Assembly (NCBI GenBank): GCA_013298895.1
Contig: JAAFJM010000005.1
Span: 106,229-170,228, forward strand
Direction: 5' to 3'
DNA length: 64,000 nt
Source: Bacteroidota bacterium
GTDB lineage: Bacteria; Bacteroidota; Bacteroidia; UKL13-3
In this document: positions 2,195 through 40,023 of the stretch, piece after piece
Numbering within the stretch: the first letter of the stretch is position 1
Layout: every line of letters begins with the position of its first letter
The notes under the pieces: generated by a model
Database searches by the model: none
Told to the model about the DNA's origin: nothing
The model's input: the letters and a program-made list of their open reading frames with translations, nothing else
Position numbers and translations under genes: made by a program

Positions 2195-4408
2195 TTATTC
2201 TATTACATCCATAAAAATACCCCTTATTCTAAAATCATTCAAATCATCTCCTTTCAAAATAATATCTTCATATTCGTCCATTGTCGATAAAGGTTTCAAG
2301 ATTATTGATTCATGTTTACGTTCATCATTGGATAAATTCCATTTACTATGATACTCCTTAACTGTATAACCAGAACCAAATTCAGAGTCTCTTATATTCG
2401 TTGATTCTACTAAAACAATTTTACCATTTCTTGATCCTCCTTCATCTTGTCTGAATAAACAATACGAACCATTTGGTATTTTTTTATTCATAGATTCTCC
2501 TATTACTTTACAAATGAAATAACCTTTTTTAGCTGAGATATTAAATGGCGGTTCTACCCATATCAACTCTGAATGTTGCTGCAAGTCGCTAAAGTTTCCT
2601 GCTGCTGCGGAGATATCAACTAATGGTATTGAATTGACGTATGGTTTTGCTTCTTCAAACCGTAGGATTCTGAATGGAATTTCTTTTTTGAAAGTCTCAA
2701 TGTGATTTTGTAAATACTCTCTCAACTCTTTGTTATAAGCGTAAATAAAAGTTCCCTTTATTCCACGATACATTATTGTCTTGTAAATATTAACAATAAA
2801 GTTCTTTAGTTCTTCTTCATTTACTCCGATTCGCCCATATTTATCAAAATAGTTACTTGAATCAATTTCGATTTTATTTGTCGCAGAGTTGTAATTTATT
2901 TCTTTTCCGAAAATAACTCCTGTATAGTTTAAATCATATCCTTGAACTGTATGAATACAACCAATTTCATGCAAAGGATTATTAATGTCTTTTGGATTGT
3001 TAATCCAATCTTTATCAGTTTGATTCCATTGAAATTGTAGGCCTTCAATTTCTATATCTATCGCATCTGGAGTTGGATTCTTTTTTTTGGGGTCAGATTG
3101 CCATTCCCATGAATACCCTGCAACTAACCTACACAAGTGAAAGTCTTCTTCTTTTTTTGATAATTCGGTATACAAATCTTTAAATGATTCAAATAATACA
3201 AGATCATATGATTCTTCTCTATATTTAGATTGAATTGTTCTTTTAACATTTAGTAATTCGTCAACAAATTGAATATAGTTATTACCACCTTTTACTCTCA
3301 TTTGAGACTTCAGTTCAAGCTTTAACGTGTTTTTCTCATTCAATAAAGTATTAAAATTTGAAGAGTCAACATCAGAAGGCTTCACAGATTGAGCTGAGTC
3401 ATAAAAGAAAATTTGGTTCTTGCTATTTGCAAGTATCCAATCCAACTCAGTGCCAGTGTCATCTAAATTTAATTTTTGATTATTCTTTTTAAATGCACCT
3501 CTCCAGCCAATATTTTTATATTGCCTAAGTCTGTGAGCTTCGTCAACGATTAATAAATCATATTTCTCTGAACTAAAAGTGTCTGATGGGTTTATTACCA
3601 TAGATGCTTTAAGCCCTGGAATTTTTCTGAATACATTTTCTAATGATTCTCTAAGAGAAGTCATTGCCACTACTAAACCAATTTTTGCATTAGGATATTT
3701 ATTTCTAAATTCAATGATATAATTAATCTCTCGCAATTCATCATCATTGAAATCTTCGATTTGTATATTTCCAACATCTGTACTCAAAAGTTTAATCAAA
3801 TAGGTGGCAAGAATGGTTTTTCCAGTTCCAGCACCTCCGCTAATAAAAATTCTATTTGATTTTTTTGATGTTAATCCTTCCAATATTTCAATAACAGAAT
3901 TATATTGATCTTCATTAAGCGACTTATATGGGGAATATTTAAATAATTCTGAATTTTCTATTTCAGTTAATGATTTTGTTACAATTTTTTTCTCAATAAG
4001 TTGATTCCAAATTTCTTTAAAAAGATTTTTATATAAATCCTGTTGATAATAATTGTGATTTATTAACCCGTAATTACCATTCTGAAGCTTATAAGTACCT
4101 TCAGCTGTTATATATTGAATTAAACTCGACTCAATATCTAATGTTGCGGACTTATTGAATTTATCTGAACCAATAATAGATATTTTATCAAGCTTACACC
4201 TTTCAGGATTTGCTAAATGATTTTTGATACGGCTAGATGCATTTGTCGATTCACCAACATATGCAATTTTTATTGAATCGTTTTGAATAAAATAAACCAA
4301 TGGCCATTGGTTTTTAACCCAAGTATTTTGTTCAATACTACTTAGTGAGAGTTTGTTAAAATCATATTGTTCAGAAACTTCAATTGATAATTCAAAGGAT
4401 AAACTCAT
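2195..4408 (-). CDS. GIY-YIG nuclease / DUF2075-type P-loop ATPase / C-terminal S24 (LexA/UmuD-like) peptidase domain fusion protein
   Basis: N-terminus VYFIQNDSIKIAYVGES...SSRIKNH...DIESSL matches GIY-YIG (GIY, YIG, conserved R, N/H, E). Walker A motif ISGGAGTGKT plus LLIVDEAHRL Walker B/DEAH-like, as in DUF2075/Schlafen-like ATPases. C-terminus has GESM (Ser in the G[DE]SM context) and YTVKEY (Lys in TVK[RE]) about 45 residues apart, with GKIVLV, as in the S24 Ser-Lys dyad fold. Its ATG overlaps the upstream gene's stop by 4 bp (ATGA). Confidence 0.75.
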   Translation of the reverse strand: MSLSFELSIEVSEQYDFNKLSLSSIEQNTWVKNQWPLVYFIQNDSIKIAYVGESTNASSRIKNHLANPERCKLDKISIIGSDKFNKSATLDIESSLIQYITAEGTYKLQNGNYGLINHNYYQQDLYKNLFKEIWNQLIEKKIVTKSLTEIENSELFKYSPYKSLNEDQYNSVIEILEGLTSKKSNRIFISGGAGTGKTILATYLIKLLSTDVGNIQIEDFNDDELREINYIIEFRNKYPNAKIGLVVAMTSLRESLENVFRKIPGLKASMVINPSDTFSSEKYDLLIVDEAHRLRQYKNIGWRGAFKKNNQKLNLDDTGTELDWILANSKNQIFFYDSAQSVKPSDVDSSNFNTLLNEKNTLKLELKSQMRVKGGNNYIQFVDELLNVKRTIQSKYREESYDLVLFESFKDLYTELSKKEEDFHLCRLVAGYSWEWQSDPKKKNPTPDAIDIEIEGLQFQWNQTDKDWINNPKDINNPLHEIGCIHTVQGYDLNYTGVIFGKEINYNSATNKIEIDSSNYFDKYGRIGVNEEELKNFIVNIYKTIMYRGIKGTFIYAYNKELREYLQNHIETFKKEIPFRILRFEEAKPYVNSIPLVDISAAAGNFSDLQQHSELIWVEPPFNISAKKGYFICKVIGESMNKKIPNGSYCLFRQDEGGSRNGKIVLVESTNIRDSEFGSGYTVKEYHSKWNLSNDERKHESIILKPLSTMDEYEDIILKGDDLNDFRIRGIFMDVIE

Positions 4409-5019
4409 AATTCAGTGTATTTTTTAGCAACGCCTTTAGACTTATCTACTGGATATTTTTTATCATTTTCAATGGTTTTATCTATAACAGCATCAAACAA
4501 ATCAATGCCATAATTATTAGCCAAGTACAAGCAATAAGTAACTATATCAGCTAATTCATTTTTTACTTTATCTTCATCTACATCCTTTTCTCTATCCCAA
4601 AGAAACAAGTCAATCAGCTCACCAGCCTCCGATCCTATAGCCATAGATAAATTTTTAGATGTATGAAACTTTTTCCAATCCCTTTCACTTCTAAAGCTAT
4701 CCAAAAACTTCATCATTTCATTTAATGGATTAAAACCTAAAGGCTGTTCATAGACTAAAACAATTTGATTTGGGCCTATTAAATTCTTATGGAAAATAAA
4801 ATCACCTTCTTCGTATGAATTTTCAACATTAAAAACATCAGGTGCCAAAATAATATCAAAGCCTTGTTCTCTTAAAAAACTATTTACCAAAACTATTTGC
4901 TTTTGTATAGATTCGGCTTCGAATGTTCTTTTAAATAACTTCCCTTCTGTCCAGCCATGATGGAGTTCCGCTAATCTATCAGAAAAAGGATAAACTTCAG
5001 ATAATAAAGGTAATTTCAT
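4405..5019 (-). CDS. MazG-like all-alpha NTP pyrophosphohydrolase with an uncharacterised ~100-aa N-terminal domain
   Basis: The C-terminal half FHTSKNLSMAIGSEAGELIDLFLW...NELADIVTYCLYLA carries the ExxE...ExxD metal-binding signature of MazG/YpjD-type NTP-PPases. The gene sits between the neighbouring genes with a 2-nt gap on one side and a 4-nt overlap on the other. Confidence 0.65.
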   Translation of the reverse strand: MKLPLLSEVYPFSDRLAELHHGWTEGKLFKRTFEAESIQKQIVLVNSFLREQGFDIILAPDVFNVENSYEEGDFIFHKNLIGPNQIVLVYEQPLGFNPLNEMMKFLDSFRSERDWKKFHTSKNLSMAIGSEAGELIDLFLWDREKDVDEDKVKNELADIVTYCLYLANNYGIDLFDAVIDKTIENDKKYPVDKSKGVAKKYTEL

Positions 5020-5021
5020 AG

Positions 5022-6998
5022 TTAATTTTGAGGTTTATGCATTGTCAATGCTAATTTATATTCATCATCGTAAGGCAATTGTAATTGTGGAAGCATTTCG
5101 GGTATTGCCAAAGCCCAACTAACATAGTAGTAAGCAAGAACATGATAACCTGAAAAGGTTTTTCCTTTAATCGAACTTATTCTGTAATCGTCTTTATCAG
5201 GCCTATAACCTTGCGTGCCTTGCATAGCAATTTCTAACGCCATTTTCTTAATTTCTTCTTTAGGCATTCCAACGAAAAATTGAAGAGCATCAACCATGAA
5301 CATAACCACTGCCATGTTAGTACCAATGCTCTGCTGTGACTTTTGGAACTTTTCCATTTCCCTTTCTTTGTAAGGGTCTTTGGATTCCAAATCATAAGGA
5401 TCTTTTTCAATGGATGATAAAAGCTCGTCTATATTTGTTCTTTTTGTTCTGTATTCATTTTCATTAACAAGTTCAAAGTTCTTATCAAGTTTTAAGTCTT
5501 CTGCCCAATGCAATACCAATTCATACTCTTCAGCAGGTTCTTTATCGTCCTTGTATTGCAAATACTCTTCATAAAAATCTGTTGCTAATTTCATTTCTGA
5601 CGGAATAGCATTGAAGTCTTTGATAAAGTCAAAACCAAATAATTCTTTGAACTGAATTGCATTTACAATATTGTAGACCTTGCTTTTTGAAATGATGTCT
5701 TTGGGAGAGAGTTCAACAATCTTTTTATCTGTTACAGCCTTCAGGCCTTCTTGTAACATATTGTAGAGAGAGATAAATTGAAAAGGTCTGAGTTCTGCGA
5801 ATTCATTATAAAGGAAATTCTCAATAAATAAGTCAATTGGCGTATTGAATATTTGACGGTTCATGCCTTCAAATAAATTAGAACAATAATCAGCAATTGA
5901 CTTTTCAGAAATTCCCATTTTGTTGAATTTCTTGATTGTCGGTTCAAGTTCTTTTATGAATTCTGTTTTATGATTCTGAGTAGAAATAAATAATTGGTTT
6001 AACTCACCTTTTCTTGCTTCAATAACAAAATCTAAATGCACCAATTCATGCATTATTAAATGTTCAACCGCTGGATAACTTGGTTTGTATTTTACAATGT
6101 GAGTTTCTCTGTCATAGTTTTCTGCAAACTCAAATTTTGCTGCCGTTGGGATTTCTTCATCTTGAATAATGTCAATTTTTCTGTCACCATCAAATTCAAG
6201 TTTGTGTCTGTATTCCCTGAATATTTTTTTGCCAGTATCAGTTGCAATTATTTTTTTAGAAATCTCGAAAGCTTGTCTTACAGAGTTTTGGTATAAAATA
6301 TCCTTACTTTTATTCAGTTTAATTGCTTGAATGGTGCTGTAAAAAGATGACTGCAAGTCCGCTTCCATTTCGGCAATCATTCCTAAAGCAAAATGAGTGT
6401 TTGCATATTGATCATTAATCTTTAAAGCCTCATAAAAATATTTTTTTGCTTCTTCCAATTTACCTTGTTGCATAAGGTTTGCACCAATATTATTTATGGT
6501 GATATTGTCCTTAGGATTTGCAATTTGTGCTTGGTCATAATACTTCATTGCAGTTGGAACATCATCTTTAAATTTAGCAAAGATGTTTCCCATCATAAGT
6601 AAAGCCCATCCATTTTTTGAATCCCAACGCAAAGCGTCAATTAAGCAATTTATTGCTTCATCTTGGTTACCTTCATCGGATAGTACTTGTCCCATAATTC
6701 GGTGGTATTCCGAATTTGTTGGATTTTTTTCAATGAGTTTTTTTAGGATTGGTTTTGCCTCTGAGTATTTTCCTTTTTCGCAAAATGAAACAACTTTTTG
6801 AAAATCTATTTCTTGAGCAAGAATTGAAGATGTATCGATTTCTATTTTTACAAAATCATCATTAATTGATACTCTGGGCTTAATAGAAGCAAAAGTGTAA
6901 TAATTTTCTAGTGTATTGATAATGAGCGATTTACCCCCCCCAATTAATTCTGGGAAGATTTCTAGTAAAAAGTTATCTATTTTATGAATAATTACCAT
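5022..6998 (-). CDS. TPR-repeat protein with a C-terminal HExxH metallopeptidase-like motif
   Basis: Several 34-aa TPR-like repeats (YHRIMGQVL..., ALLMMGNIF..., NNIGANLMQQG..., HFALGMIAE...). The C-terminal region has HELVH. The ORF track starts at TTG (7016). I prefer the ATG at 6996-6998 (MVIIHKID...) because a TAcaTTTG -7 box (complement of 7014-7021) lies just upstream. Confidence 0.6.
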   Translation of the reverse strand: MVIIHKIDNFLLEIFPELIGGGKSLIINTLENYYTFASIKPRVSINDDFVKIEIDTSSILAQEIDFQKVVSFCEKGKYSEAKPILKKLIEKNPTNSEYHRIMGQVLSDEGNQDEAINCLIDALRWDSKNGWALLMMGNIFAKFKDDVPTAMKYYDQAQIANPKDNITINNIGANLMQQGKLEEAKKYFYEALKINDQYANTHFALGMIAEMEADLQSSFYSTIQAIKLNKSKDILYQNSVRQAFEISKKIIATDTGKKIFREYRHKLEFDGDRKIDIIQDEEIPTAAKFEFAENYDRETHIVKYKPSYPAVEHLIMHELVHLDFVIEARKGELNQLFISTQNHKTEFIKELEPTIKKFNKMGISEKSIADYCSNLFEGMNRQIFNTPIDLFIENFLYNEFAELRPFQFISLYNMLQEGLKAVTDKKIVELSPKDIISKSKVYNIVNAIQFKELFGFDFIKDFNAIPSEMKLATDFYEEYLQYKDDKEPAEEYELVLHWAEDLKLDKNFELVNENEYRTKRTNIDELLSSIEKDPYDLESKDPYKEREMEKFQKSQQSIGTNMAVVMFMVDALQFFVGMPKEEIKKMALEIAMQGTQGYRPDKDDYRISSIKGKTFSGYHVLAYYYVSWALAIPEMLPQLQLPYDDEYKLALTMHKPQN

Positions 6999-7013
6999 TA
7001 GTTTTTTATGATT

Positions 7014-7021
7014 CAAATGTA
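7014..7021 (-). promoter_or_regulatory. Bacteroidota sigma-A -7 box (TAnnTTTG) for the three-gene operon
   Basis: Minus-strand TACATTTG, 16-23 nt upstream of the ATG at 6998. Confidence 0.35.
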
Positions 7022-7189
7022 ATGCAAAATGATATTATTTCATTAAAAAGTATGTGTGAATAGATATCAGAATTTAATTTAAAATATAGTCCTTATGAAA
7101 TCAATTACTTAAAATGTGCTTCTTAAAAATAAAATTACTTTACTAACCAAATTTGATAAATATGTCAAGCACTATTTTAGTTCTAAAAC

Positions 7190-7385
7190 CCGTGCGGGAA
7201 AGGTTTTGTCAAAGTTCAAGACTTTAACAAAGGTAAAGACAGTTAAAAAGGAACTACTTTTGGTTTCAAGTTTAAAACTTTGACAAAGTATATTCCGCAT
7301 AATTTTCCCTATTAATCTATTCCGTAGGGGAACACCTTTGTCAAAGTTCAAGACTATACAAAGGTAAAGACCAATAAAAAGGAAA
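7190..7385. repeat. Intergenic composite repeat: two ~65-bp direct copies plus an inverted partial copy
   Basis: CCGTgcGGGAAaggTTTGTCAAAGTTCAAGACTtTAaCAAAGGTAAAGACagtTAAAAAGGAA (7190-7253) recurs at 7322-7385 with few mismatches. CAAGTTTAAAACTTTGACAAAG (7267-7288) is an inverted partial copy of the core TTTGTCAAAGTT. Lies between the divergent operon (start 6998) and the PKD gene (7515). Confidence 0.7.
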
Positions 7386-7514
7386 ACTGCACTCATCCTA
7401 TAAAACTTTACAATAAAAAAATTTACTTTTAATTGGAGTAAACTAAACTTTATTATATTCGTTTAAAATTGTTGTTACCCTAAAAAGGCTTCACCAAATA
7501 GTTAGGATATAAAT

Positions 7515-10500
7515 ATGGTTAAAAAAATTTACTTAATAATTTTAGTGTTGCTTGCAACATTAAAAATTTCAGCCCAAACTTGTACTATTATTGCCAATTC
7601 AAATTTAGTATGCCTTGGCAATGCCATAAATTTTAGCGCAACTTTTACACAAGGCTTAACTCCTAGCATTTATGAATGGAATTTTGGGAATGGCGTTACC
7701 AATAATCAAGCTAGTCCTACCTATAACTACCCTAATACAGGTAACTTTACACCAACCTTGAAAATTACTTTTACCAACAATTCGCAGTGCGTGGTAAATG
7801 GAAGCAATATTCAAGTGGTGGCACTGCCTATTGCCGATTTTGTAATAACTACTGCTACACGCCAATGTTTTAAAGGCAATAGTGTTTGTGTAAATGATTT
7901 ATCAAAACCAGGACCAAGCGGAAGTCCATTGAATATTCGTACTTTTTTATGGGGAGATGGTGGTTTTGATGTAAGTCCAATAAGTAATAAAAACTTTTGT
8001 AATACCTATACAAACAGCGCTGGTAGTACTAACTCACTCGTACTTGAGGTTACCGATGCCAATGGCTGTTTAACACGACTTGAAAAAAACAATGCCATTG
8101 TTATTTTACCCAAATCGGATGCCATTAGTTTTGTAACACAATACAATGTAAAATGCAATACCACTCCAGTTACATTTTTAAATACTTCCATTTTATCACA
8201 ATCAAAGGTTAAGAAATTTACTTGGGATTTTGGTGATGGTACCATTGATTCGTCAAGTACCAAATGGAATAATTTTATACATAATTATACTATTGGAGGT
8301 TATTTTTCACCACGATTAATCGTTACCGATTTAAATGATTGTAAAGATACTTTTGTATTGGTTAATGGAGCCCAAAATCTTAAATTAGATGACAAAATTA
8401 CAATTACCAATGTAGATAAATGTTTTAGTAAACAAGATTATTCTTTTTCAGTACCAGGCTCATCAGGGGCAAATATTTATTGGTCTATTTACGATGAAAA
8501 AGGCAAAATATTTGACACCATATACAATACAGCATATATACAATTGGCCAACAAAAAATTTAATTGTGGTTGGTACAAAGTAAACATGTATGCCAGTGCT
8601 GGCAGTTGTAATATAAAAGCAGATACTTTAGTTGAAGTTTTTGGCCCTAATACTATTTTAGCCAATGATACAGTTAGACCATTAAATGAAAACCAGTGTA
8701 ATCCTAACGATACTGTTTTTTTTAGAGTTCCTCCTCCTGAAATTTCATGTTTTTATAAAAATGTAACCAATTGGCTTTGGGACTTTGGTGATGGTTTTGC
8801 ACCTCCTTGTACCACTGATACTAAAAACGGAATTAATGTAGGTGTAAATTGTAGGTATAGTAAAGATAGCACTAATATCAAACACAAATACAATCCAACA
8901 AAACCAGATTGTTATAATGTAAAACTATTAATTACCGACCCTATAAAAAATTGTAGTGACCTTGATTCTTCATTGGTAATATTAAGTAGCCCCAACGCAA
9001 AACCTAATTTACCAACACGCAGAGGATTATACTATTACACCATTCCTCCTGGTAAAGCAGGACCACCACAAAATTGTTTTTCAAGTACCTTTGTATTTCA
9101 ATACGAAGAAACCTTACCCGATTGCGGCAGAGAAAGAGTATGGATTAACCTAGATTCGGCTGCTGGAAAAAACAGATGGGACTCTGTATATCCTAAAGAA
9201 AATTTTCACATTACGAGGTATTCAAATACTGCAGATCCTAACGGATGGGTTACAGTTGGTTTAATCATTAAAAATGGCATTTGTTACGATACCGCTTGGT
9301 ATCACAATATGTTTCAGCTACTCAAAATAAAACCTCAGTTTAAGGCAACGGTAGAAGGAAAATGCCCTCCTTATAAAGTTACAGTTAATTTAATTGACTC
9401 CATACAAGATAGCATAGTTACCGCACGAATAAGTTTTAATGGTATTGACAGTGTTCAAAACTTAGCTTTAACAGACTCGGTTATAAACCAGAAAGTGGGG
9501 TACTTTAATTCAATGGGAATTAAAACAATACGTGTTACATTAACCAATGCCAAAGGCTGTAGCCAAGTTTACGACACTTTGCTATACCTTGGCTTTTATA
9601 AAGATTTAGCCATACCAAAACCAATAGGTTGTTTTAAAGATTCAATTCAATTTTTAGAGGTAGTGGATTATTATTCTAAAACTACCAACTATTGGAAACA
9701 ACCCGCGAGAGCAATTGCTAATAAAGAAAAGTTGTGGTGGAACTTTGGAGATACGAATGTATTTGTAGCGGGAGGCAGTTCACCAAAATATAAATTTAGT
9801 AGACCGGGCAATTTTTTAGTAAAAATTGCAATTCAAGATAGTCTTGGATGCAGAGATACTATGATAGCTAGGCAAACAATAAAAATAGTAGATGTAAAGG
9901 CTAATATTTTACCTATTAGTGCTAACTTAATTTGTGCTCCTAAAATTATTCCATTTAAAGACAATTCAAAAGTTATTGACTCATCAGCATTATATGGCAA
10001 TAGTAGCTACGACAACATCATTTCTTGGAGTTGGGACTTTGGGGATTTAAAAGCCAAATCATTATTAAAAGATCCTCTTCATGACTATACAAGTAATGAT
10101 TCTTTTATGGTTACACACATAGTAAAAACTACAGCTGGATGCACCGATACTGTATTTTTACCTTTAATTATTAAAGGCCCCAAACCTAAATATCTTTTTT
10201 CAAGTGGAGATACATTAGGATGCGCCCCTGTTAAACTAAAACTAAATAATACAACAGGAAAACAAATTAAAAGTTGGCAATGGACAGTAAATGGTCCGTT
10301 AAACTTCATTATCTCAACTGATAAAGACACTGCAACAGATTTTTCGTTGGTAAAAGCAGGGAAATATAGAATTTTATTATTAGGAACTGACTCATTGGTA
10401 AATGAAGTAACTGGACAAACTGTTTATTGCACATCTGTTTACCCCGATACTTTAAACCCAAGTCAAAAGCCTGTTTATGTAACCGTTTACGACAAACCTT

Positions 10501-38870: not shown

Positions 38871-39650
38871 ATGAATATACCTATTCTTAGAACCGTAACT
38901 ATTACACGTTATATAACTCCTCTGCGCGAAGGTGGCTCTTTGCCAGCTTTGGCCGAAGCAGATGATAATTTTAAATATGTACTCAAATTTAATGGTTCTG
39001 GCCATGGTACCAAAGTGTTAGTAGCCGAGTTATTAGGTGGCGAAATTGCCCGTGCCTTGGGTTTACAAGTGCCCGAATTGGTGTTTGCTAATTTACATGA
39101 AGCCTTTGGTCAAACCGAGGCTGACGAAGAAATTCAAGATTTATTGAAGGCTAGCAAGGGGCTTAATTTAGCATTACATTTCTTGTCAGGTTCCATTAAT
39201 TTTGATCCAGCAGTTAAAACCATTGAACCTCACTTAGCTTCCAAAATAGTTTGGCTAGATTCGTTTATTACCAATATGGATAGAACATTCAGAAATACTA
39301 ATATGTTACTGTTTAATAGGGAATTATGGTTAATTGATCATGGGGCAAGTTTTTATTTTCACCATTCAGGAACCGATTGGGAAAATGCTGCTAAAACACC
39401 TTTTGCCATTATTAAAAGCCATGTTTTATTGCCGCAGGCCACAGAATTAACCCTAGTTGACGAGGAAATAAAAAAGGTTTTAACGGTTGATAAACTTACC
39501 GAAATTGTAAATTTAATTCCAGCTGAATGGTTGGTTTGGAACGATACTAATAAAACTCCAGATGAGCTGAAAAACATGTATTTGCAGTTTTTAATTACTC
39601 GCTTGAATCATTCTCACATTTTTATAAACGAAGCTCAAAATGCAAGATAA
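38871..39650 (+). CDS. HipA-like / PI3-4-kinase-fold Ser/Thr kinase, short single-domain form
   Basis: YVLKF is a putative ATP-binding Lys. FITNMDRTFRNTNMLL resembles the HipA/CtkA catalytic loop (D.H.KN). WLIDHGASF is the DFG-equivalent metal-binding motif. Confidence 0.5.
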   Translation: MNIPILRTVTITRYITPLREGGSLPALAEADDNFKYVLKFNGSGHGTKVLVAELLGGEIARALGLQVPELVFANLHEAFGQTEADEEIQDLLKASKGLNLALHFLSGSINFDPAVKTIEPHLASKIVWLDSFITNMDRTFRNTNMLLFNRELWLIDHGASFYFHHSGTDWENAAKTPFAIIKSHVLLPQATELTLVDEEIKKVLTVDKLTEIVNLIPAEWLVWNDTNKTPDELKNMYLQFLITRLNHSHIFINEAQNAR

Positions 39651-40023
39651 TCACATATATGAATATGCGGTAATTCGTGTTTTGCCGGTTATTGAACGCG
39701 AAGAATTTGTAAACGTGGGCATTATTTTATTTTGTAAAAAAGCCAATTTTATAAAAGTGCATTATACTGTAAATGAAGCTAAACTATTAGTTTTTTCAGA
39801 AAAAATTGATATTGAACAAATTAACTTGAATTTACAATCATTAGCTAATATTGCACACGGCATAAAAAATAGCAATCCAATTGCTGAATTAGATGTACCT
39901 TCAAGGTTTAGATGGCTCACAGCAGTAAGAAGTTCAGCCATTCAGCTATCACGTCCACACCCAGGATTGTGTTCTGATTTAGAAAAAACCGCTCAACGAT
40001 TGTTTGAGGAAATAGTTCTTTAG
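39640..40023 (+). CDS. DUF3037-like small protein, translationally coupled to the kinase
   Basis: 127 aa. EYAVIRVLPVIEREEFVNVGIILF matches the conserved N-terminal block of DUF3037. Its ATG overlaps the kinase stop by 11 nt. Confidence 0.5.
   Translation: MQDNHIYEYAVIRVLPVIEREEFVNVGIILFCKKANFIKVHYTVNEAKLLVFSEKIDIEQINLNLQSLANIAHGIKNSNPIAELDVPSRFRWLTAVRSSAIQLSRPHPGLCSDLEKTAQRLFEEIVL

Follow-up and report, generated by a model that had tools for sequence, protein, structure and literature searches.

The stretch of DNA analysed here (the window: 64,000 nucleotides, positions 106,229 to 170,228 of contig JAAFJM010000005.1, assembly GCA_013298895.1 of a Bacteroidota bacterium) encodes on its minus strand a 737-residue protein in which a peptidase S24 domain of the LexA/UmuD/CI type is fused to the C-terminus of a GIY-YIG nuclease and superfamily 1B (SF1B) helicase. 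S24 autopeptidases are known as switches on the repressors LexA and CI and on the Pol V subunit UmuD. We propose that this protein and a MazG-like partner encoded directly upstream form a self-cleaving module of two genes, a relative of Nhi and AbiO, whose nuclease-helicase is licensed by autocleavage, and that filaments of RecA on single-stranded DNA (RecA-ssDNA, RecA*) are the probable stimulus; the probability of this reading is put at about one half.

An earlier note on this DNA, made from the sequence alone, had read the end of the protein as an autopeptidase because of the motifs GESM and TVKEY, with a GKIVLV strand between them. The motifs are present, the strand occupying residues 662-667, and the putative nucleophile Ser639 and general base Lys684 lie 45 residues apart, as claimed. 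In fact, the C-terminal region of about 140 residues is a genuine S24 domain with a conserved Ser-Lys dyad, as judged from Pfam, from hhalign and from 98 relatives. Pfam Peptidase_S24 (PF00717) matches residues 596-687 (E 1e-6); its 28.9 bits exceed the gathering cut-off of 23.3, and on the same model distant relatives reach 49-69 bits. The PHROG family phrog_4, named 'transcriptional repressor', matches residues 591-707 (E 1e-8).

By sequence, the link to solved structures is weak. A phmmer search of PDB sequences with the lone C-terminal 174-residue sequence gave nothing relevant, and a family profile of 64 members reached Thermotoga maritima LexA only at E 0.054, in an alignment that pairs the cleavage site (RAG in that LexA) and GESM with the window protein. 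Comparison by fold was therefore needed. Residues 564-737, modelled with AlphaFold on the family alignment (mean predicted local distance difference test, pLDDT, 83.5), are predicted to form a beta fold of the LexA/UmuD type, and not the deviating fold that the earlier note had named as counter-evidence. The closest structural matches of the model are the C-terminal domains of LexA and CI, and RecA-filament-bound structures of LexA, UmuD and CI (8trg, 8gms, 8gmt, 8gmu) are among the fold matches. An hhalign comparison of the family profile with Escherichia coli LexA, whose sequence is to be taken as approximate, gave E 0.003 over 132 columns, pairing IPLVDISAAAG with LPLVG-RVAAG, GESM with GMSM and TVKEY with TVKRL, and making Ala603-Gly604, Ser639 and Lys684 the equivalents of LexA Ala84-Gly85, Ser119 and Lys156.

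Conservation was measured in an alignment of 100 sequences, of which two are misaligned truncated open reading frames (ORFs); the 98 valid relatives come from 80 genome loci and from 50%-identity representatives. Ser639 is kept in all 98 and in every aligned sequence, Lys684 is kept in 97, and Gly637 and Met640 are nearly invariant, so that the dyad, whose absence from orthologues would have spoken against the earlier note, is conserved among these relatives. The predicted cleavage site is kept equally well, with Ala or Cys at P1 in 97 of the 98 relatives and Gly at P1' in 97. Dyad and Ala/Cys-Gly bond are thus preserved almost everywhere across 29-90% identity. The spacing is also that of the family: Ala603 precedes Ser639 by 36 residues, compared with 35 for LexA and 36 for UmuD. 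The separation of Ser and Lys is 37 residues in E. coli LexA (Ser119/Lys156) and 43 in lambda CI; the extra residues of the window protein, an insertion of eight relative to LexA, form a low-confidence loop (674-678) in the full-length model. The predicted site ends strand 593-602. No segment of the protein is modelled with less confidence than the loop that follows (603-613, pLDDT below 50), as would suit a cleavage-site region that is mobile.

A single relative of 728 residues (P0242) retains the S24 domain with the lysine changed to arginine, and in this protein the Ala-Gly site is gone too; its S24 domain is 33% identical to that of the window protein and its core 54%. Joint loss and drift of this kind would be expected if site, base and nucleophile cooperate in catalysis. 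The conserved Ala/Cys-Gly site and the joint loss in P0242 strengthen the argument for self-cleavage beyond what the earlier note had offered. By every feature that can be tested computationally the domain is a member of the S24 family, with autoproteolysis as its predicted activity.

Pfam domains and conservation also bear out that the S24 domain stands C-terminal to a GIY-YIG nuclease and a P-loop helicase. The full-length AlphaFold model of the 737 residues has a pLDDT of 87.1 and a predicted template modelling score of 0.75; in the linker before the S24 domain, pLDDT drops to 77-82 across residues 571-600. A beta-beta-alpha-beta-alpha core is predicted for residues 37-103 of the N-terminal domain, whose profile has I-TevI, UvrC and T4 EndoII as top matches among PDB sequences, at a marginal E of about 0.02. 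The GIY-YIG Pfam model scores 23-36 bits, over its cut-off, in homologues (e.g. P0260, P0272, P0370, P0387 and P0389), and in 35 diverse sequences Y50, G52, E53, R60, H64, E93 and N110 are invariant, with Y39 kept in at least 90%. Judged from its catalytic residues (Tyr of GIY, Tyr of YIG, Arg, Glu and Asn), the window protein is a member of the GIY-YIG superfamily. The central domain is a helicase of the DUF2075/SLFN group 3 family (PF09848), of SF1B type. The Walker residues G191, G194, T195, G196 and K197, as well as D289, E290 and H292, are invariant in 44 sequences, and a Foldseek search with the full model finds DSH9, Upf1, RecD2, RecD, Dna2, nsp13 and Pif1 as neighbours at E 2e-8 and below. 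No helix-turn-helix (HTH) family has a Pfam match anywhere in the protein, and the LexA equivalog TIGR00498 reaches 14 bits, against a cut-off of 110.95, in the C-terminal part only. As a DNA-binding domain is absent, the protein is not a LexA, and the earlier conclusion that it is no repressor stands.

The second gene of the module encodes a MazG-like protein, and its stop codon overlaps the start of the nuclease-helicase gene by 4 nucleotides. The core of this partner matches Pfam MazG-like (E 3e-16); among solved structures its nearest relative is dCTP pyrophosphatase 1 (DCTPP1, also RS21-C6), with E 1.4e-16 over the entire 108-residue core. Among the 80 best genome loci, 66 hold a full-length nuclease-helicase gene and 65 have enough upstream sequence to be informative; a MazG-like gene is found directly upstream in all 65, with the identical 4-nucleotide overlap in 61. 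The pairing also occurs in distant lineages, S24-bearing as well as S24-less. The nuclease-helicase and the MazG-like protein are therefore a two-gene, translationally coupled module.

The S24 domain is an optional part of a large family. The window protein has more than 7000 homologues; the 120 listed, 74-92% identical to it, fall in one length class, and all but two have the S24 Pfam domain. An exhaustive search of 50%-identity representatives gave 3090 relatives, and among the best 150 of these most are about 550-600 residues long, ending near query position ~570 inside the linker, with an S24 domain present in 19. A rough neighbour-joining tree of the core intermingles the two forms, pairing proteins that have S24 with sisters that lack it, and one S24-less gene was confirmed within its contig. 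When one ancient fusion was tested against repeated gains, identity in S24 correlated weakly with identity in the core (rho 0.17, p 0.05). This weak co-variation and the interspersed forms indicate that S24 is a modular accessory. It is not the only one: a second, more LexA-like type of S24 occurs in a lineage where no GIY-YIG match is detectable (P0256, P0259, P0354), a C-terminal HTH_3 (XRE) domain replaces S24 in a protein of 700 residues (P0389), and an HSDR_N domain is added at the N-terminus of another of 730 residues (P0260). The GIY-YIG-DUF2075 core thus accepts various add-on domains at both ends. The predicted product 1-603 would correspond to a natural S24-less enzyme extended by some 30 residues of linker. 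The automatic annotation in the database already reads 'DUF2075 family protein / ... / SOS-response transcriptional repressor LexA'. Together with the AAAG site, which lies inside the segment the earlier note dealt with, and with the MazG/DCTPP1-like partner, the optional nature of S24 goes beyond what that note had described.

Stand-alone S24 genes were suggested by a search with the C-terminal fragment, which returned mostly 'LexA-like' proteins of 142-300 residues. In the case checked this was rejected, the 192-residue 'LexA' of a Pedobacter locus (L156) being the C-terminal piece of a full-length gene that has been split or frameshifted; the remaining matches of this size are mostly on short contigs. 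Split or shortened copies of the nuclease-helicase-S24 gene are present in that locus (3385-5579) and in three others (L068, L073, L082), and their recurrence suggests frequent inactivation and dispensability.

The S24-bearing type is patchily distributed, with at least 570 of 185,579 species genomes carrying it; the best 80 genomes are all Bacteroidota except one Balneola. Proteins that are 75-90% identical occur across Flavobacteriaceae, Chitinophagaceae, Cytophagaceae, Saprospiraceae, Crocinitomicaceae and Spirosomataceae, and insertion sites differ between loci. Such high identity across families points to horizontal transfer of the module. Viral contigs of IMG/VR gave only matches of 24-51% identity, which implies that the module is not phage-borne; the better ones, located close to the ends of their contigs, look like S24 domains of phage repressors. 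Four loci are clear defence islands: the module adjoins toxin-antitoxin genes, Thoeris ThsB/ThsA and Shedu in L001, a KAP NTPase in L089, SocA, methylase, HATPase and HNH genes in L158, and in L156 HNH, AbiEi and, directly, a PLD-helicase-DUF3427 gene (5598-8741), of a class noted as a neighbour of DUF2075 NTPases in a study of modification-dependent restriction (PMC6765204). Matches to DRT, LmuB and SoFic were scattered among the flanking genes (131 flanking ORFs scanned).

The mechanism that we infer from these data, in its cleavage and RecA* trigger as in its direction and anti-phage role, would run as follows. The S24 domain would hold its own Ala603|Gly604 loop beside the Ser639/Lys684 dyad, and a signal that stabilises the cleavable conformation would set off self-cleavage. 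The likeliest signal would be RecA-ssDNA filaments arising from phage replication or DNA breakage. Cleavage would give a nuclease-helicase of about 603 residues and an S24 fragment of about 134; the large fragment, equal to the S24-less enzymes of the family, would degrade replicating (phage) DNA, and the MazG-like partner would act on the deoxynucleoside triphosphate (dNTP) pool. RecA-ssDNA is favoured as trigger because it is the agent for every close solved relative. Phage DNA is the proposed target because of the genomic context and of the precedent of Nhi, Nhi-like and AbiO. Activation is favoured over inactivation because the product would resemble the natural S24-less enzymes and because of the behaviour of Nhi, a nuclease-DUF2075 protein which at full length reportedly has almost no nuclease activity and of which an N-terminal fragment is active, truncation being considered by its authors a possible natural step (bioRxiv 10.1101/776245). 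The interpretation given in the earlier note, an enzyme held inactive until RecA*-stimulated autocleavage, is plausible as a mechanism and partly supported. More tentatively, RecA-ssDNA filaments formed in phage replication might arm an immune nuclease-helicase directly, without transcription, in a bacterial counterpart of Schlafen-type replication-stress killing with a DCTPP1-like second arm on the dNTP pool.

Several observations weigh against this mechanism. Cleavage inactivates LexA and CI, the S24 proteins known best. Some LexA-like proteins, such as IrvR, are reported to be RecA-independent (PMC7101444). The GIY-YIG Pfam match of the window protein itself (PF01541, residues 37-73) has 19.9 bits and is under the cut-off of 22.6, and the PADLOC Nhi models gave no match to the protein at E up to 0.1. 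Over the 80 loci, flanking genes are mostly housekeeping, with defence matches scattered among them, and we do not claim enrichment; in the window the module lies between genes for thioredoxin-like and DUF4920 proteins and a PKD/type IX secretion system (T9SS) protein, in no defence island. The precedent of LexA and CI bears on the direction of the switch. In both, cleavage inactivates by detaching the functional domain from S24, which serves in dimerisation, and it is their C-terminal domains that the S24 model matches best; in the same way S24 could be a dimerisation module needed by the enzyme, and RecA*-stimulated cleavage during the SOS response could inactivate it, sparing host repair intermediates. 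Nhi is moreover reported to act as a dimer (bioRxiv 10.1101/776245). Most members of the family, however, are S24-less and yet keep invariant nuclease and helicase motifs, so that dimerisation through S24 is not generally required, and the product freed of S24 would match natural enzymes; an off-switch is thus unlikely. The trigger might also differ from RecA*, and be ssDNA binding or ATP hydrolysis by the protein's own helicase, a phage protein, or the MazG-like partner or the TPR-HExxH protein encoded next to it. IrvR is a described case of a RecA-independent S24 protein of LexA-like type (PMC7101444), the helicase belongs to the SLFN group 3 family, and ssDNA binding to this domain activates human SLFN11 (PMC13056530), and the eight-residue insertion between Ser and Lys sets the domain apart from LexA. 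Nevertheless, the closest solved relatives, LexA, UmuD and CI, are all RecA*-dependent, the RecA-bound structures 8trg, 8gms, 8gmt and 8gmu were matched, and nothing in the present data points to another stimulus, so that a different trigger appears improbable.

The module might instead serve the host in repair or damage tolerance, as an SOS-linked nuclease-helicase of UvrC/Slx1 type which, like UmuD on its conversion to UmuD', is activated post-translationally and has a partner that sanitises dNTPs. UvrC and I-TevI are the nearest matches of the GIY-YIG profile, DCTPP1 is a house-cleaning enzyme, UmuD is itself an S24 protein without HTH in which cleavage switches on a repair function, and the window locus, with many others, stands amid housekeeping genes. 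A repair function of this kind accords poorly with the patchy distribution, with the very high identity across families at variable insertion sites, with the recurrence of disrupted copies, with the defence genes that adjoin several loci, and with the anti-phage activity of the characterised nuclease-DUF2075 proteins Nhi, Nhi-like and AbiO; we hold it to be unlikely. Lastly, S24 might not cleave at all and act only in dimerisation or in targeting to RecA filaments. S24 C-terminal domains do dimerise and bind RecA filaments (8trg and 8gms are among the matches), and P0242 keeps the domain with neither lysine nor site. Yet nucleophile, base and Ala/Cys-Gly bond are kept almost everywhere down to 29% identity, and the joint loss with faster drift in P0242 is what shared catalysis would lead one to expect; the pattern of conservation makes a non-catalytic domain very improbable.

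The module differs from each of the systems it resembles. LexA and lambda CI (MEROPS S24, PF00717) have an N-terminal HTH, which the window protein lacks, and release a repressor domain, whereas the window protein would release a nuclease-helicase of about 600 residues. UmuD, like the window protein, has S24 and no DNA-binding domain, and its cleavage activates. It sheds a 24-residue arm and works via Pol V; here a whole enzyme stands in the place of the arm. In the CapH/CapP and ImmR/ImmA systems, a protease senses ssDNA or damaged DNA and thereby unleashes a defence or mobile-element function. The metallopeptidase of these systems cuts a separate HTH repressor, so that control is transcriptional, whereas the window protein carries its S24 serine peptidase within the effector polypeptide. 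Nhi, Nhi-like and AbiO, like the window protein, begin with a nuclease and continue with a DUF2075 helicase; the nuclease of Nhi and AbiO is PD-(D/E)XK and that of the window protein GIY-YIG, and for none of the three has a MazG-like partner or an S24 domain been described. The PADLOC AbiO model matches only the helicase region (E 2e-9), and the PDC-S14 and PDC-S41 candidates match partially. Compared with DCTPP1/RS21-C6, the partner belongs to a bacterial type, a protein of 109 residues coupled to a nuclease-helicase. Group 3 Schlafens (SLFN11, SLFN5, SLFN13) have the helicase family PF09848 in common with the window protein, whose helicase domain is a bacterial homologue of that of SLFN11; in SLFN11 this domain binds ssDNA and activates the nuclease, so that a helicase-like domain responsive to ssDNA or replication stress gates a nuclease (PMC13056530). 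In Schlafens the effector is the Slfn-core, an RNase that cleaves tRNA, and S24 is missing, in contrast to GIY-YIG and S24 here, and the parallel with SLFN11 is one of analogy only.

In the literature searched on DUF2075 with S24, DUF2075 with MazG, and S24 or MazG-like proteins in defence, no description of the fusion was found, and the two-gene module was found neither in the PADLOC library nor in that literature. If the proposed mechanism is true, a single polypeptide couples RecA-ssDNA to an effector and skips transcription. It would give a concrete activation mechanism to the poorly understood nuclease-DUF2075 defence proteins, and the proteolytic truncation suspected by the authors of Nhi would fit it; it would also give SLFN11 a parallel in bacteria that is easy to study by experiment. 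The prediction of self-cleavage is specific, and unexpected for S24 biology.

Table 1. Positions in the window of the nuclease-helicase-S24 gene, its domains and motifs, and the genes preceding it.
Feature	Position	Strand	Basis or remark
Whole gene, GIY-YIG + SF1B (DUF2075/SLFN group 3) helicase + S24	2195..4408	-	single 737-aa ORF including stop codon
GIY-YIG nuclease domain, residues ~30-115	4064..4321	-	Pfam, conservation, model
SF1B helicase/DUF2075 (Pfam SLFN-g3_helicase), residues 187-558	2735..3850	-	PF09848, E 9e-59
Walker A GAGTGKT	3815-3835	-	motif position
Walker B VDEAH	3533-3547	-	motif position
Linker, residues 559-595	2624..2734	-	ends of S24-less homologues and pLDDT dip
Peptidase S24 (LexA/UmuD/CI-type) domain, residues 596-737	2198..2623	-	Pfam, profile, fold
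Predicted autocleavage site AAAG, residues 601-604	2597..2608	-	alignment to LexA
Scissile bond Ala603|Gly604	codons 2600-2602 and 2597-2599	-	predicted
GESM, residues 637-640, nucleophile Ser639 (codon 2492-2494)	2489..2500	-	conservation, LexA alignment
TVKEY, residues 682-686, general base Lys684 (codon 2357-2359)	2351..2365	-	conservation, LexA alignment
MazG-like/DCTPP1-like all-alpha nucleoside triphosphate pyrophosphatase core, residues 96-204 of 204-aa ORF 4405-5019	4405..4734	-	Pfam, profile
Tetratricopeptide repeat (TPR) protein with HExxH, 664 aa	5022..7016	-	HELVH, residues 323-327, at 6036-6050

Neither sigma-70 promoters nor intrinsic terminators were found above chance level in scans of the DNA around the operon. 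The MazG-like ORF of the window carries an additional N-terminal extension of 95 residues (4735-5019, minus strand) that no Pfam family matches, as does that of one 99%-identical locus (L008); elsewhere the protein nearly always has 106-130 residues, usually 109, and in the other loci with a TPR gene the MazG-like gene comes straight after it. The extension is either a small inserted domain or the result of a mis-called start. A gene for a TPR-HExxH protein of about 660 residues precedes the pair in 13 of the 60 loci with enough upstream sequence, the window included, where its true start may be Met7. Pfam TPR matches are limited to residues ~75-225 of the 664; the C-terminal region of about 430 residues has no Pfam or PDB sequence match, and profile hits in the PDB are TPR proteins only. 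The residues H323, E324 and H327 do not vary among 14 sequences that are 43-96% identical, and by this signature the protein may be a metallopeptidase; the 120 relatives listed from the database are 89-100% identical over the C-terminal region. In three distinct loci a 105-residue XRE-type HTH gene lies directly upstream of the TPR-HExxH gene (L001 733-1050, L011 2687-3004, L051 2713-2997), and it is absent from the window; by analogy, the arrangement recalls the repressor-metallopeptidase pairs ImmR/ImmA or CapH/CapP.

Elsewhere in the window, and unrelated to the module, two overlapping genes on the plus strand (38871-40023) encode a HipA_2-type kinase-like protein of 259 residues and a DUF3037 protein of 127 residues.

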